From the NCBI GenBank assembly GCA_963804645.1, contig CAWDRG010000006.1:60540-124539 (forward strand): 64,000 nucleotides of DNA, read 5' to 3'. Under the pieces are notes generated by a model. The model ran no database searches and was not told the origin of the DNA. It saw only the letters and a list, made by a program, of their open reading frames with translations. Source of the stretch: an uncultured Bacillota bacterium. Lineage in GTDB: Bacteria > Sysuimicrobiota > Sysuimicrobiia > Sysuimicrobiales > Segetimicrobiaceae. The translations under genes and the position numbers were made by a program. This document shows positions 45,267 through 49,901 of the stretch, piece after piece; positions within the stretch are counted from its first letter, which is position 1; each line of letters begins with the position of its first letter.

Positions 45267-45527
45267 TTACGCGCGCGGATCGCGGGGGTACGGCCGATTC
45301 GGCAGCGCCGTGTTCCACTCTCTCGCCGTCTGCTCGATGACCTCGCGCACAATCTCATGCGGGAGCTTTCGCGTGATCCCCGCGAACCGCCGAATGCACT
45401 CGATCGCCTCCGGCGACAATCCCAGCGCGCGCACGAGATCGAGGGATTTCTGGAATTTGGCGCGGCTCAGCATGCCGTCGAAGCTGGTATCTCGATGTTC
45501 CGGATGCGCCCGTCGACCGTTAGACAT
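45267..45527 (-). CDS. small hypothetical protein
   Basis: 86-aa ORF with a G-rich RBS; no recognised motif. Confidence 0.35.
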   Translation of the reverse strand: MSNGRRAHPEHRDTSFDGMLSRAKFQKSLDLVRALGLSPEAIECIRRFAGITRKLPHEIVREVIEQTAREWNTALPNRPYPRDPRA

Positions 45528-45603
45528 CTCACACCCCCGAGTTCTCCATGCCCGAGGCGCCTCGGTGCTAGATAAGATGAACGAGCCGGCGACCCGCGTA
45601 ATA

Positions 45604-45837
45604 CCTGAATCCGGCGGGGAATGTCCAGATTTAGAGCCAGCCGATCTGCTCCGAGCTTGCCAATGGCGCACCGGCGGGCCAATGGACCACGAAATTTGCT
45701 CTGCCAGGATAATTACACTGGAGTGAAGATATCCTGAAAGGGCACAATTTCTCCCTCGGATCGCACCGGCCCAAGTAATTCGCGGCTTCCGCGACAGGCG
45801 TGCTCTTCAAAGTTGCACAGATGCCGCCGGATTCAGG
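45604..45837. mobile_element. 234-bp MITE
   Basis: 14-bp perfect TIR CCTGAATCCGGCGG; 5-bp TSD TAATA at 45599-45603 and 45838-45842. Confidence 0.8.
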
Positions 45838-45893
45838 TAATACGTGGGTTGCCACCAGGACGGAGGCCTATCCACATACGGGGGTGCCGGCTC

Positions 45894-47003
45894 ATGGATC
45901 AGCATAGCATAGTGGTTGGTCTGGATGTCCACAAAGGGAGCATCACGGCCGCGGTCCTGCCGCCAAACGTTGCGCGGCCTCAGGAGACGTGCACGATCGA
46001 GAACGACGCGCGGGCCGTCGAGCGCTTGGTGAAACGGATCATGAAGAACGGGAATGCGGTGTTTGTGTACGAGGCGGGGCCGTGTGGATATACGCTGCAC
46101 CGGCAGTTGTATCGTCTGGGCTGCCAGGCGGCGGTGATCGCCCCGGGCCTGACGCCCGTGCGTCCCGGCGATCGGGTCAAAACGGATCGGCGTGACGCGG
46201 AGAACTTGGCCCAACTCTATCGCGCGGGGCAACTCACGGAAATTCGGGTGCCCACCGGGGAAGAGGAAGCGGCCAGAGACCTCGTCCGTGCGCGCGAAGA
46301 CGCCGTGGCCGACCGGCTGCGCGCCCGACATCGGCTGAGCAAATTTCTCCTTCGTCAAGGACGGCTGTACGATGGCAAGCAAGCGTGGAGTCAGAAGCAT
46401 TACGCGTGGCTCCGTCAGCAACGGTTTGAGTTGACGTTGGCCCAGCAGACGTTTGATGCGTATCTCCGCGGGGTCGAAGAAGCCGACGCCCGGTTGGCGA
46501 GTTTGACCACCCAGGTGCTCGAACTGGCGCAACGGCCGAGCTATGCGGCGCTTGTGCAAGGCCTGCGCTGTCTGAAAGGCGTCGACACGCTGACCGCGAT
46601 CACACTGATTGTCGAAACACAGGACTTCCGGCGCTTTGGGCACGCCCGCGCGTACATGGACTTCACCGGCTTGGTGTGCTCCGAGAACAGCAGCGGAGAC
46701 AGGACCCGCCGCGGCTCTATTACGAAAGTCGGCAACGCGCATCTCCGCCGTGTCCTGGTCGAAGCGGCCTGGAGCTACTCGCATCACAACAGCAGCGGCG
46801 CGACGATCACCAAACGACGCCACGGCTGTCCGGCGGCAGTGGTGCAGATCGCCCGCCGTGCGCAGGACCGGCTTCACCGCCGCTACTGGCGCCTGACCCA
46901 GCGCAATAAGCCACGGCCAGTCGCGATCGTCGCCGTCGCGCGGGAGTTGGCAGGATTCGTCTGGGCAATCGCGCATAGCGTGTCGAGCACCACCGCGGCG
47001 TAG
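45894..47003 (+). CDS. IS110 family transposase (DEDD recombinase)
   Basis: VGLDVHK, YEAGPCG, KTDRRDA, SENSSG, ITKVGN, VAVARELAGF. Confidence 0.95.
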   Translation: MDQHSIVVGLDVHKGSITAAVLPPNVARPQETCTIENDARAVERLVKRIMKNGNAVFVYEAGPCGYTLHRQLYRLGCQAAVIAPGLTPVRPGDRVKTDRRDAENLAQLYRAGQLTEIRVPTGEEEAARDLVRAREDAVADRLRARHRLSKFLLRQGRLYDGKQAWSQKHYAWLRQQRFELTLAQQTFDAYLRGVEEADARLASLTTQVLELAQRPSYAALVQGLRCLKGVDTLTAITLIVETQDFRRFGHARAYMDFTGLVCSENSSGDRTRRGSITKVGNAHLRRVLVEAAWSYSHHNSSGATITKRRHGCPAAVVQIARRAQDRLHRRYWRLTQRNKPRPVAIVAVARELAGFVWAIAHSVSSTTAA

Positions 47004-47068
47004 AGTACCAGGAACAGATTCCGAGGATCGACGGACGTGTTCTGGACCTGGAGGCGAAGCAGCGGTCA

Positions 47069-47200
47069 GGAGCATCCTCGAGGGGTCTATGTGGCGGACA
47101 GGCTGACGTCTGTGCCGACCCACGTTCCTAGATTGAGGCAGCTCCCGACGAATCACAATCATGTGCGCTCTGCCCGCTTCGTGCGGGTAACCGCCGAATA
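47069..47200 (+). ncRNA. bridge/seek RNA of the outer IS110, 5' part (remainder at 48633-48650)
   Basis: Stem-flanked loop with GGGGTCTA and CGTTCCTAGA matching the element's own flanks; stem AATCAC/GTGATT spans the nested IS. Confidence 0.7.
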
Positions 47201-47212
47201 CGCATGAAAATG

Positions 47213-48418
47213 TCAAGGCTTTTCTCGCTGCCTCGTGCCGTGGCGGGTAGCGACGAAGGCTCGGTAGTGTCCCTCCGCATCTTGTAAGACCTGCCGTTCT
47301 TCAGCCGGCGTCAACGTTTGCTCGTTGGTCTTGTCCGGCTTGCGTGGACGGCCCCGTCGGCTGGGTGCGCCTGCGGTCAGCTCCACTCGACGTAGCTTGT
47401 GCGCCGTAAGACTCGGAGGCGTCCATTTGTAGTCGGTCCTATCCGCGAGCAGGTGCCAGGCCACCACCGCTAGCTTGCGCGCCACGGCGACGATCGCGAT
47501 GGCGCGCCCGCGGCGAGCGCGCACACGATCGTAGAAGGCATGCAGAGGACCGGGCACACGGATTGCGGACTGGGCCGCTTCGACCAACAGCCCACGCGCA
47601 TGCGCCTGTCCCTGTCGGCTGATGTGGCCTGTATGAGCGGGTCGCTCACCGGATTGGCGCACCCGTGGATCCAGGCCCAAATAGCCGACCAACTGCGTCG
47701 GCCGCTGAAACCGTGCGACGTCTCCGATGACAGCGAGGAGAGCGACCGACGTGATCAACCCCACACCAGGGATCGTCATCAATCGCGTCGCCTGCGGATC
47801 CGCGAGAGCGGCCTGCGCGATCCGTTGTTCGGCTAACTTGATCTCCGCGTCGACGGCGGTGAGCAGGCGGAGCGCACTATCGACTTGGTCCTTCTCTTCG
47901 CGCGGAAGCGGCACACTCGCGAGCCAGCGACAGCCGGCCTTCCCGAACAGGTCCGTGAAGGAGTGTCCAATGAGATTGCGGTGCAGCACCCCGTGAATCC
48001 GATTCCGAAGACGCGTCCGCTGCTGAACCAGCGACTGATGATGGGCGACCTGATGGCGGAGCGCTCGTGTCACCGGATCTGGTGTCCACACAGGCGGGAT
48101 AAAATCCGCCGCGAGCAATTGTGCCAAAATTGCGCTGTCCACTCGGTCAGTCTTGACCTTGGCACTCGCGATGGCCCGCGTGCGCATTGGATTGGACACA
48201 ATGACTTCACCGGCATGCTCACTCAGCAATTCGGCGATCGCCCATGTATTCACGCTCGCCTCGAGGACGACGCGATCCGTCGAGTGCAGCGTGCGCGCAA
48301 AAGCTCGCAATGCGGCGGGCGTCGTCTCAATGCGTTGCCGTTGCTGAACCTTGCGTCCGTGTTCAAGTACGGCGACTTCAGCAAAGCGTTTGTGGACGTC
48401 CAGCCCTATCGATCGCAT
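47213..48418 (-). CDS. IS110 family transposase
   Basis: IGLDVHK, VLEAS, KTDRVDS, IPGVG, QSG, VAVARKL. Confidence 0.95.
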   Translation of the reverse strand: MRSIGLDVHKRFAEVAVLEHGRKVQQRQRIETTPAALRAFARTLHSTDRVVLEASVNTWAIAELLSEHAGEVIVSNPMRTRAIASAKVKTDRVDSAILAQLLAADFIPPVWTPDPVTRALRHQVAHHQSLVQQRTRLRNRIHGVLHRNLIGHSFTDLFGKAGCRWLASVPLPREEKDQVDSALRLLTAVDAEIKLAEQRIAQAALADPQATRLMTIPGVGLITSVALLAVIGDVARFQRPTQLVGYLGLDPRVRQSGERPAHTGHISRQGQAHARGLLVEAAQSAIRVPGPLHAFYDRVRARRGRAIAIVAVARKLAVVAWHLLADRTDYKWTPPSLTAHKLRRVELTAGAPSRRGRPRKPDKTNEQTLTPAEERQVLQDAEGHYRAFVATRHGTRQREKP

Positions 48419-48434
48419 GCAGACCCCCTTGGGA

Positions 48435-48600
48435 CCCAGCCGGGCACCACAACACCTACGCATCCGCGCTCGCAGCGCAACCGGGTCAGTCGCAGGGGCG
48501 GCCAGATATCAGATCGGACTCGTGGTCCATATTCGCGACGGCCTGCCCGTTGCTGGTGGTCCCTTGTGCCCCATGGCCCGGCTCCGCTACGATAAGTCGG
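48435..48600 (-). ncRNA. bridge RNA of the nested IS110 (boundaries approximate)
   Basis: Target loop CGAATAT-hairpin-TCTGATAT; donor loop ACCCGGT-hairpin-ATGCGTA. Confidence 0.75.
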
Positions 48601-48824
48601 AACCGGGTGGGACACCTCTTTCATAACCGATATCAGAGTGATTCACCGTCGCGAACGCTTCGCTTCCAGGACCCGAATACGCCGTCCATCCTCTGGGACG
48701 ACGGAGGGCCGTTCGTGGCTTGACCTACACGGTACTTGACAGGCTCGTTCATATCAGACCCCGCGGGAGTGGCACCCTGCCGGAGCCGCTGAGCCGCGCG
48801 CTGACCCGTCTGCTGTCCTCGCCG

Positions 48825-49901
48825 TCACGCGAAGAACGATGTCAGATGCTGGATGATCATGATCGTCGAGATCGTCACGGACACCATCGCGTAGACCACA
48901 GCGACGGCCGGACGCCGCATCACTAAGTTTCCGATCGCGGCGATCGCGGGGAATCCCGCGAGCAGCAACCGGATGCCGGACACCGTGCCGACGGTGCACA
49001 GGACGGCGGCCACCGTCGCCGCGCTGAACACGGCGAGATCACGCGCCCCGTCGCGCCACAGCACCCAGCACCCGAACGCCGAGATCGCGACGAACACGTA
49101 GTGGCGAAGCAGCCAGATCCACCGATGTGCGTCCCCCCGGAGCATCCAGAATCCGCTGGCCGGGCCGTACAGAAACCACATCGGCTGCTGCCACGGCCAC
49201 GTCAAGGACACGTTCCAGCCTGCGCGCTCGTCCCTGAAATAGGCGAACGGGGTTCCCGCCGCGATCCACTGCCAGGCGACGATGCCGACGGCTGCCGCGA
49301 CCAAGGGCACCAGAAACAGCAGCCGCGGCTGCCATGGGGACTTTGCCGCCGCCGTCATCGCCAGCACGGCCGGTCCGGCGACGTACCGGCCGGTGACGGC
49401 CGCGGCGACCAACGCGCCCGCGGCCAGCGGCGTGACGCGCCCGAGCGCCGCACTGCGATACAGCCAGAGCCCGCCGGCCATGCAGAGGACGTACACGCTC
49501 TCGCTGTACCCGAACGTGCTGACGCTCACCCAGGTCGGGAACAGCGCGAAGAACATCGCCGCGCGCCACCCCATGAGCGGCACGAGCACGGCCACCGCCG
49601 CGAGCGCCGCCGCATTGCTGACGATCAACGGCGACCACCATCCTGCTCCCACCAGCCGCAGCATCGCCGGGAACAGCGGCGAGAACGCGTAGACGTTCGC
49701 GTACACGTGGTAGCCGAACCGTGCCAGCATCAAGTAGATCACGGCGTCCCACCGGTGCGCCAGCGGACCCAGGAACGACGGCAGGGCCGGGGCGCCCATC
49801 AGCTCGTAGGCCGCCGTGCACGCCGCGACTTTGACCGCGATCGCGGCGCCGACCACCCAGATGATGTGGGTCCACGTCCGGCCGAGCGCCGCGCAGGTCA
49901 T
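48825..49901 (-). CDS. GT-C membrane glycosyltransferase (mannosyltransferase-like)
   Basis: RWDA..Y..LA..GY, AFSPLFP, GYSES; multiple TM helices. Confidence 0.75.
   Translation of the reverse strand: MTCAALGRTWTHIIWVVGAAIAVKVAACTAAYELMGAPALPSFLGPLAHRWDAVIYLMLARFGYHVYANVYAFSPLFPAMLRLVGAGWWSPLIVSNAAALAAVAVLVPLMGWRAAMFFALFPTWVSVSTFGYSESVYVLCMAGGLWLYRSAALGRVTPLAAGALVAAAVTGRYVAGPAVLAMTAAAKSPWQPRLLFLVPLVAAAVGIVAWQWIAAGTPFAYFRDERAGWNVSLTWPWQQPMWFLYGPASGFWMLRGDAHRWIWLLRHYVFVAISAFGCWVLWRDGARDLAVFSAATVAAVLCTVGTVSGIRLLLAGFPAIAAIGNLVMRRPAVAVVYAMVSVTISTIMIIQHLTSFFA

Follow-up and report, generated by a model that had tools for sequence, protein, structure and literature searches.

Descriptions of RNA-guided recombinases directed by bridge RNAs or seekRNAs appeared in 2024, and the natural behaviour of these enzymes is poorly known. 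According to one report (PMC11208160), IS621 and other bridge-RNA insertion sequences (ISs) of the IS110 group combine a DEDD recombinase with an upstream non-coding RNA that carries a target loop and a donor loop, and these loops pair with both DNA strands in stretches that overlap at the core. Titles cited in the same report state that IS4321 and IS5075 target the inverted repeats of Tn21 and that IS1383 targets those of IS1384. A second report (PMC11187229) describes IS1111 guide RNAs, in which the top-strand match lies 5' of the bottom-strand match, and ISEc21, an IS110-family element with an upstream guide RNA and a natural target inside another IS. Here we describe an IS110-group element (the inner element) inserted in the guide-RNA gene of an IS1111-group element (the outer element) in a 64,000-nucleotide (nt) stretch of DNA from an uncultured Bacillota bacterium (assembly GCA_963804645.1, contig CAWDRG010000006.1, positions 60,540 to 124,539; the window). 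Sequence comparisons indicate that the inner element very probably targets the donor guide of the outer element by means of its own RNA, and would thus be a parasite of a parasite. A full-text literature search, with subscription journals and supplements outside its scope, returned nothing on insertions into bridge- or seekRNA genes or on IS110 elements nested in IS1111 elements.

The window belongs to contig C6 of a 22-contig, 5.3-Mb genome (G000). The region 45500-48800 contains two transposase genes on opposite strands: the gene of the inner element (47213..48418, minus strand; 401 amino acids (aa), P0001) and that of the outer element (45894..47003, plus strand; 369 aa, P0002). Both proteins were assigned to the IS110 family by Pfam (PF01548 and PF02371, DEDD_Tnp_IS110 and Transposase_20), and both pass the cut-off of the NCBIfam model NF033542 ('IS110 family RNA-guided transposase'). 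A BLAST search with positions 45500-48900 against the whole genome located six copies of the outer element (C6, C16, C17, C19, C21a and C21b). The copy on C16 (C16:28-1519) carries no insert, and its site reads ...GTAACCGCCGAATATCAGAGTGATTC... Each of the other five copies holds an inner-type element, always inserted at one particular base and facing the same way. All five share one left junction, and the four whose right junction is visible share that as well; the C21b copy runs off its contig before this point. The insert in the window comprises 47201-48630 with the core dinucleotide TA on either side (47199-47200 and 48631-48632); its position has a 3-nt ATA/TAT ambiguity. A first-pass annotation of the window, made from the sequence alone, had proposed that removal of 47201-48632 restores a site in the 3' region of the outer element; the empty C16 copy bears this out for the equivalent interval 47201-48630. 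DNA contigs from two peat-metagenome runs of two studies also contain the filled junctions as well as the joint of the empty form (47197>48630). One of these runs is possibly the source sample, so that the independence of this evidence is incomplete.

Across the six copies, nucleotide identity of the outer parts is 99.9% or higher. The elements inside them are far more diverse. Variant A is the same in C6 and C19 (100%), but differs from variant B (C17) with 82% identity and from variant C (C21a) with 74%; B and C are 91% identical, and D (C21b) equals C over the 563 nt available (100%). Divergence of this order within near-identical outer copies means that at least three inner lineages occupy the same base. 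The nesting, the empty site and the repeated independent occupancy of this site are therefore real. All five copies of the inner clade in this genome reside in outer copies, and the 11-mer CGAATATCAGA is intact only once in the 5.3-Mb genome, namely in the empty C16 copy. The only further relative in the genome (54% aa identity, C19:49233) is a member of another clade, and its guides are not the same.

Two simpler histories can be weighed against these data. A single ancestral insertion might have spread by homologous recombination, gene conversion or copying of the filled composite, with no repeated guided insertion. The near-identity of the outer copies, their long flanking homology and the sharing of variants (A in C6 and C19; C = D on C21) are compatible with such a history. 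It does not account for the three inner lineages, nor for the same junction in outer-like elements of only 37-54% aa identity from Actinomycetota metagenome-assembled genomes (MAGs) with low flanking homology, nor for loop sequences that match the site and covary with it (see below). We consider it very improbable. Still harder to credit is a single element with two transposases, of which the inner element would be an integral module. The two do occur together in five of six copies here and in relatives, but the outer element also exists without an insert, in the C16 copy, in the empty joints of the metagenome contigs and in 12 homologues of the outer family. Moreover, the inner element comes with ends and an RNA of its own and with the signature of a junction promoter, and other clades of its family sit in unrelated genes.

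Comparisons with the empty C16 copy and among the five filled copies delimit the inner element (variant A) to 1430 bp on the minus strand (47201..48630). P0001 matches PF01548 (E = 2e-21), PF02371 (E = 6e-25) and NF033542 (244 bits versus a cut-off of 140); at the profile level, the protein thus has the DEDD/RuvC-like N-terminal domain and the Transposase_20 C-terminal domain. The non-coding sequences follow the IS110-group layout, with 211-212 nt upstream of the transposase gene (48419-48630) and 12 nt after the stop codon (47201-47212). No long inverted repeat was noticed in the ends on reading, although no repeat-finder search was made. When joined, the ends read TTGACA - 17 nt - TATGAA, which is the sequence signature of a junction promoter. 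Together with a predicted RNA whose two target guides match the target and whose left donor guide matches the right end of the element itself, these features mark the inner element as a bridge-RNA-guided IS of the IS110 group, an assignment that shares the high confidence we place in the explanation as a whole.

The element resembles IS621, as described in PMC11208160, in its DEDD recombinase, its upstream non-coding RNA with target and donor loops, the pairing with both strands with a 2-nt core overlap, the absence of target duplication beyond the core, and the -35 box from the right end and -10 box from the left end that meet across the junction (here as read from sequence). Unlike IS621 it has TA instead of CT as the core, a transposase of 401 aa, and a target in the guide-RNA gene of another element. 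Another difference is the order of the guides. In IS621 the bottom strand is paired by the 5' side of the loop, whereas in the inner RNA the top-strand match lies 5' and the bottom-strand match 3', unlike the order in IS621 and ISEc21; it is the order that PMC11187229 gives for IS1111 members. This reversal is a trait of a subgroup and does not define the family.

The core of the inner bridge RNA (48440..48560, minus strand) was delineated from a 25-sequence alignment (A1) and comprises two internal loops, each with a hairpin. On the 5' side of the target loop, the right target guide CGAAUAU (48529..48535) pairs with ATATTCG in the top strand of the site. On the 3' side, the left target guide UCUGAUAU (48506..48513; TCTGATAT as minus-strand DNA) equals TCTGA-TA-T in the top strand. 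A GGAC/GTCC hairpin (48516-48528), closed by GGCC/GGCC, lies between the two guides. Jointly they cover the 11-nt site TCTGA-TA-TTCG on both strands and overlap at the core TA. When the 211-nt leader was shuffled 20,000 times with its dinucleotides preserved, core-spanning matches of both 8 nt on the top strand and 7 nt on the bottom strand were reached twice, and a summed length of 15 was attained 20 times. The donor loop contains the left donor guide AUGCGUA on its 3' side (48457..48463), identical to the right end of the inner element (CATGCG) plus TA, the hairpin (48466-48478), and on its 5' side ACCCGGU (48480..48486), whose identity to the left end is limited to 5 nt (CGGTT); all three are on the minus strand. 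A simple pairing of the right donor guide was considered for the inner and the outer element and rejected, as neither direct complementarity nor identity holds across clades.

The fold itself is conserved. Variants A, B and C share a near-invariant stretch in an otherwise diverged 5' leader (D ends at a contig end without this region), and the same scaffold is common to relatives of 46-72% aa identity from the same order and from other MAGs. In the 25-sequence alignment, 97.3% of the cells in the four-helix structure are paired, compared to 35-46% when the partners are slid by 1-3 columns. Six pairs show changes on both sides, and none of 500 shuffles reached the observed covariation score. 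Rfam 15 contains no family that recognises either the inner or the outer RNA (searched with the window and the empty copy).

If the loops act as guides, they should change with the sequences that they match, and in relatives of the inner element they do. The left target guide follows the left flank: GCCUUUAU in the RNA is accompanied by GCCTTTAT in the flank (L041, L048), ACCUUUAU by ACCCTTAT (L008), and GCCUUUA by GCCCTTA (L027, L028). The right target guide follows the right flank in the clade of L074 (GCGCAAA, GTCCAA, GATCAAA), where its reverse complement reads TCGCGCAAA in L079, at a junction reading TC-GCGCAAA, TCGTCCAA in L095 and L096, and TCGATCAAA in L100; the right guides of L087 and L093 do not match the right flank. 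In a clade with 57-60% aa identity to the inner element, CGCAUAU replaces CGAAUAU and the sites read TATGCG instead of TATTCG, with L080 and L081 as exceptions that retain TATTCG sites. Finally, the left donor guide occurs in three states that agree with the right end of the same element (AUGCG-UA with CATGCG, AUCCG with CATCCG, AUCGG-UC with CATCGG-TC). This covariation shows that the predicted inner loops behave as guides matched to their sites. The first-pass annotation had proposed the minus-strand guide and hairpin motifs, a target loop matching both strands of its site, and covariation of guide and target as a check. The motifs are all where it had placed them; the shuffles, the compensatory pairs and the joint changes of guides and flanks substantiate the other two. 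Its further claim that the second loop matches the circle junction of the element, on one side imperfectly, holds for the 3' side, for which we found the three covarying states; no rule emerged for the 5' side.

We then turn to the question of what the inner element has invaded. The intact 3' non-coding region of the outer element, about 320 nt in the empty copy, adopts a consensus fold (four sequences) with a long closing stem and two arms. The first arm (47070..47145, plus strand) has GGGGUCU on its 5' side (47082-47088) and CCUAGAU on its 3' side (47127-47133). The reverse complement of GGGGUCU (AGACCCC) matches the right junction AG+ACC(c/t)c in the five outer copies with a visible junction. 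This guide also covaries with the right flank in all four close family members, as illustrated by the pairs of arm and flank sequences AGAAACC/AGAAGCC (L052), AGTGTCG/AGTGTCC (L053) and AGAACCG/AGAACCG (L054). Both observations argue that arm 1 is the target loop, with AG as the core.

The second arm, which would bind the donor, is the one that is interrupted. Its first part (47146..47200, plus strand) contains the 5' strand of the closing stem, a hairpin (47172-47187) and the beginning of the 3' side (..CCGCCGAAUA); the second part (48631..48655, plus strand) provides what remains of the left donor guide (UAUCAGA), together with the stem's 3' strand (GUGAUUCacCGUCG). The closing stem is CGACGAAUCAC/GUGAUUCacCGUCG, and its GACG/CGUC portion (about 4 bp) was found by RNAalifold in 12 of 12 family members. 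A complete fold of the donor arm was not obtained by this approach: from the 12 diverse outer arms only the closing stem was recovered, the length of the interior being too variable. The 3' side carries ..CCGCCGAAUAUCAGA, and the inner cut falls between AAUA and UCAGA. In the folded outer RNA this position belongs to an internal loop, on its 3' side.

This invaded segment repeats the right end of the outer element, ATATCAGA (CATATC-AG-A, 48751-48758). We compared loop segment and right end in ten intact members of the outer family (L058 and L064 were left out), nine of which have an identified right end. The two share at least 7 nt in seven of the nine, 6 nt in L060 and 5 nt in L053, and guide and end have changed together to TACCAGG in L059 and to ATAAGAG in L062. 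L058 and L064 agree with this pattern (ATATCAGT; ATATCA); they come from the unpublished genome G025, publication of which needs permission. A donor-binding loop that repeats the right end of the element is thus found in the outer element itself, in L059 and L062, and in the nested loci discussed below. Since the site repeats the right end and covaries with it across the outer family, these comparisons identify the invaded site as the predicted left donor guide of the outer element. The first-pass annotation had come to the same identification, and the right end is present at 48751-48758 as it described; the closed-stem internal loop and the joint changes to TACCAGG, ATAAGAG, CTCATAT and CTGAGAT now add weight to it. 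In L053 (G068:C62) the donor guide AACATCAG mismatches both its own right end (ATATCAG) and the guide of the inner family, and could be a decayed or an escape variant.

Relatives of the inner element are nested in the same way. One of them, on G070:C11 (L022 = L073; 71% aa identity by tblastn, 72% in the genome search), occupies the same site of an outer-like element in a congener recorded as 'uncultured Firmicutes bacterium'. The clade of 57-60% aa identity comprises 11 loci in MAGs labelled Solirubrobacterales, Solirubrobacteraceae, Gaiellales or Actinomycetota, and its loop 1 guides are CGCAUAU and CUGAUAU. Nesting was recognised by two signs. One is a P0002-like gene (37-54% aa) on the opposite strand with its C-terminus about 150-370 nt beyond the inner right end (L076, L080, L081, L082, L084, L091, L097); the other is an outer-like right end 130-200 nt upstream (L076, L078, L082, L084, L085, L091, L094, L097). 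By either sign, ten of the 11 loci are nested, and the eleventh (L090) is a 1361-nt contig without flanks. Site and outer-like right end covary here as well (CTCATAT in L085 and L091, CTGAGAT in L078, gCTGATAT in L094). These comparisons show the same nesting in distant relatives, as far as the loci assembled in Actinomycetota MAGs represent them. The expectation that homologues of the inner transposase would be enriched in IS1111-type 3' ends is likewise matched by five of five copies in this genome, one in a congener and, in the 57-60% clade, all ten loci that could be assessed.

Elsewhere in the inner family, clades differ in their guides and lack an outer-like neighbour. L023 lies within an asparaginase gene, and L048 within a gene that encodes a transposase-type HTH_21 domain and is possibly part of another IS, recalling ISEc21. 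L024 adjoins a DUF998 gene, and L041, L025 and L008 are further loci with different guides that are sited elsewhere. The longest open reading frames flanking the insertions of these clades turned out to be an unreliable guide in GC-rich DNA, with a Pfam match in only 6 of 12.

How might the inner element reach its site? By analogy with IS621 (PMC11208160) and seekRNA elements (PMC11187229), it would excise as a circle, and its leader RNA would be transcribed. Loop 2 would hold the junction of the element itself and loop 1 the site in the outer DNA, where CGAAUAU would pair with the top strand and UCUGAUAU with the bottom strand, and strands would be exchanged at TA. The expected outcome is an insertion at one position and in one orientation that divides the gene for the outer guide RNA. 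The target arm remains in the first stretch (47004-47200), along with the donor hairpin and the 5' half of the donor arm. The second stretch (48631-48757) contains what is left of the donor guide and, for each of the two closing stems, the 3' strand. We infer that the inner RNA is made and guides recombination in this organism. Judged from its sequence, a filled copy cannot encode an intact two-arm RNA, and would presumably rely on the empty copy for a working guide RNA or be immobile. A site of this kind would be multi-copy, harmless to the host and doubly constrained. It would also be a stable address, as it must keep matching the right end of the outer element.

Several observations weigh against guided parasitism of this kind or limit it. 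The 5'-side donor guide shows no simple pairing with the left end of the inner element, and no pairing rule across clades was found for the right donor guide of the outer element. No circle junction was seen in the contigs of the sequencing runs. Contigs of RNA libraries cover only 47405-47659 and 46953-47142, which does not prove transcription. The latter interval, represented in one metatranscriptome library, spans the end of the outer transposase gene and the target-binding arm and stops near the end of this arm; it is a weak hint only, as the contigs show neither strand nor ends. The near-identity of the outer copies could in part come from assembly or polishing of this 22-contig assembly; repeats may be smoothed in MAG assemblies. 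Two inner elements are each found unchanged in a pair of composites (variant A on C6 and on C19; C = D on C21), which would fit continued copying of filled composites, without demonstrating it. Short IS1111 seekRNAs with target matches only supported transposition in the assays of PMC11187229. The specificity of the inner guide is not absolute either. In the 57-60% clade the left guide CUGAUAU is constant, and sites reading CTCATAT or CTGAGAT are one mismatch off, from which it follows that one mismatch is tolerated. Finally, L076, L082 and L097 have GA as the core at the right junction versus TA at the left junction, the outer-like right end being CTGAGAT in L082 and L097 and CTGATAT in L076. 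We infer that a GA target core recombined with a TA donor core in these cases, with either outcome kept. L078 has GA at both junctions. Loci with TA/GA junctions may inform how core mismatches are resolved.

Some of these points could also mean that the site is a safe haven and nothing more, conserved, multi-copy and neutral to the host, with little harm to the outer element, for example if its donor loop were dispensable or its RNA supplied in trans. IS110 and IS1111 members often target repeats and other mobile elements (ISEc21, IS4321, IS5075 and IS1383), short seekRNAs were enough in the assays published in PMC11187229, and an empty copy that could supply the RNA is at hand in a genome in which composites with identical inner elements occur twice. 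What speaks for harm is that the insert parts the two halves of the conserved closing stems of the outer RNA and cuts the guide, and that only one of six outer copies retains an intact RNA gene. We regard harmless lodging as possible, if on the whole doubtful; it concerns the consequence and not the targeting, and is therefore inseparable from parasitism by sequence alone.

A more far-reaching proposal, which we put forward tentatively and consider rather unlikely when its parts are taken jointly, is that the two elements form a long-specialised, co-evolving pair, in which one inner lineage depends on the donor guide of one IS1111 lineage. Such a pair would extend over at least two bacterial phyla (by record labels), and the guide would change only with a matching change of the right end. 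The outer variants CTCATAT and CTGAGAT would be escape attempts, followed by the inner element through its mismatch tolerance. The inner RNA or its ribonucleoprotein might even bind the outer RNA and interfere in trans, an idea suggested by the exact complementarity of the inner left target guide to the donor guide of the outer element.

Targeted parasitism of the outer element, which remains our preferred reading, has its nearest parallel in ISEc21, whose targets, as described in PMC11187229, are the DDE codons of IS3-family transposase genes. Those are protein-coding sequences of an unrelated IS family. The target of the inner element is instead non-coding, a gene for the guide RNA of an element from a sister group with the same RNA-guided mechanism, and the guide order differs. 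The roles are also exchanged relative to the IS1111-family elements that invade other elements: here the IS1111-type element would be the victim. The programmable RNA of one element would thus home into the gene for that of another, at the guide with which the victim recognises its own end, in a form of RNA-guided competition between mobile elements whose target is evolutionarily pinned by its need to co-vary with that end. The locus and its relatives also provide a natural guide-target data set for an IS110 clade with a guide order unlike that of IS621, and a matched recombinase/RNA pair, presumably orthogonal, coexisting in one cell. For annotation, they illustrate that a nested relative can split IS1111-type elements into apparent fragments.

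The ends of the outer element were assigned from its left end and subterminal repeats, common to homologues of 64-66% aa identity, and from the six copies. It extends over about 45572..48755 (plus strand) with AG as the core on either side (45570-45571 and 48756-48757). The homologues of P0002 in L052, L053 and L054 (64-66% aa) align with these ends, and the conserved left end begins CT-AG-ATAAGATGAACGAGCC at about 45568. An 11-bp subterminal inverted repeat, read from the sequence and its homologues, is present as ATGAACGAGCC on the left (45577..45587, plus strand) and as its reverse complement GGCTCGTTCAT on the right (48742-48752, plus strand). The right end is CATATC plus the core AG (48750..48757, plus strand), repeated by the outer donor guide. 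Subterminal repeats within the 7-17 bp range of IS1111 elements, found in the homologues too, and a long 3' non-coding guide-RNA region with target matches to the top and then the bottom strand place the outer element in the IS1111 group. In PMC11187229, the same combination is described for ISEc11, ISKpn4 and ISPa11. A left end at 45837 was ruled out, as the homologues place a stretch of 33 nt (45567-45599) inside the element; the notion that these 33 nt are a repeated target of the outer element was ruled out as well, the right flanks having nothing in common. The extent assumed in the first-pass annotation was hence too small: the left end lies at about 45570, not near 45837, with a 232-bp miniature inverted-repeat transposable element (MITE, 45605-45836) inside.

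The left end of the outer element is also invaded, in three of the six copies, at GTAATAC, a sequence that flanks the insert on either side. The window copy (45598-45843) has as its insert the 232-bp MITE with inverted repeats CTGAATCCGGCGG. A related MITE (88%) lies in the opposite orientation at C19:112857-113123, and at C21:4898-7862 (L071) two tandem 1.5-kb IS copies with a DDE transposase (Pfam DDE_Tnp_1_4) have the same repeats. With this left-end invader the IS has a second parasite, unrelated to the first. Other copies show signs of rearrangement or decay. At C21:1-4897 two outer copies lie in tandem, 53 bp apart, both with the same inner variant (C = D), and in the second of them the outer left end is missing its initial ~30 nt (window 45572-45597), and with these the left subterminal repeat. 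The outer transposase gene on C19 (C19:113167-114045) has a 1-bp indel that limits the match to residues 1-293. Inner variant B (C17:853084-853863) has three in-frame stops in its transposase gene and an intact bridge-RNA region.

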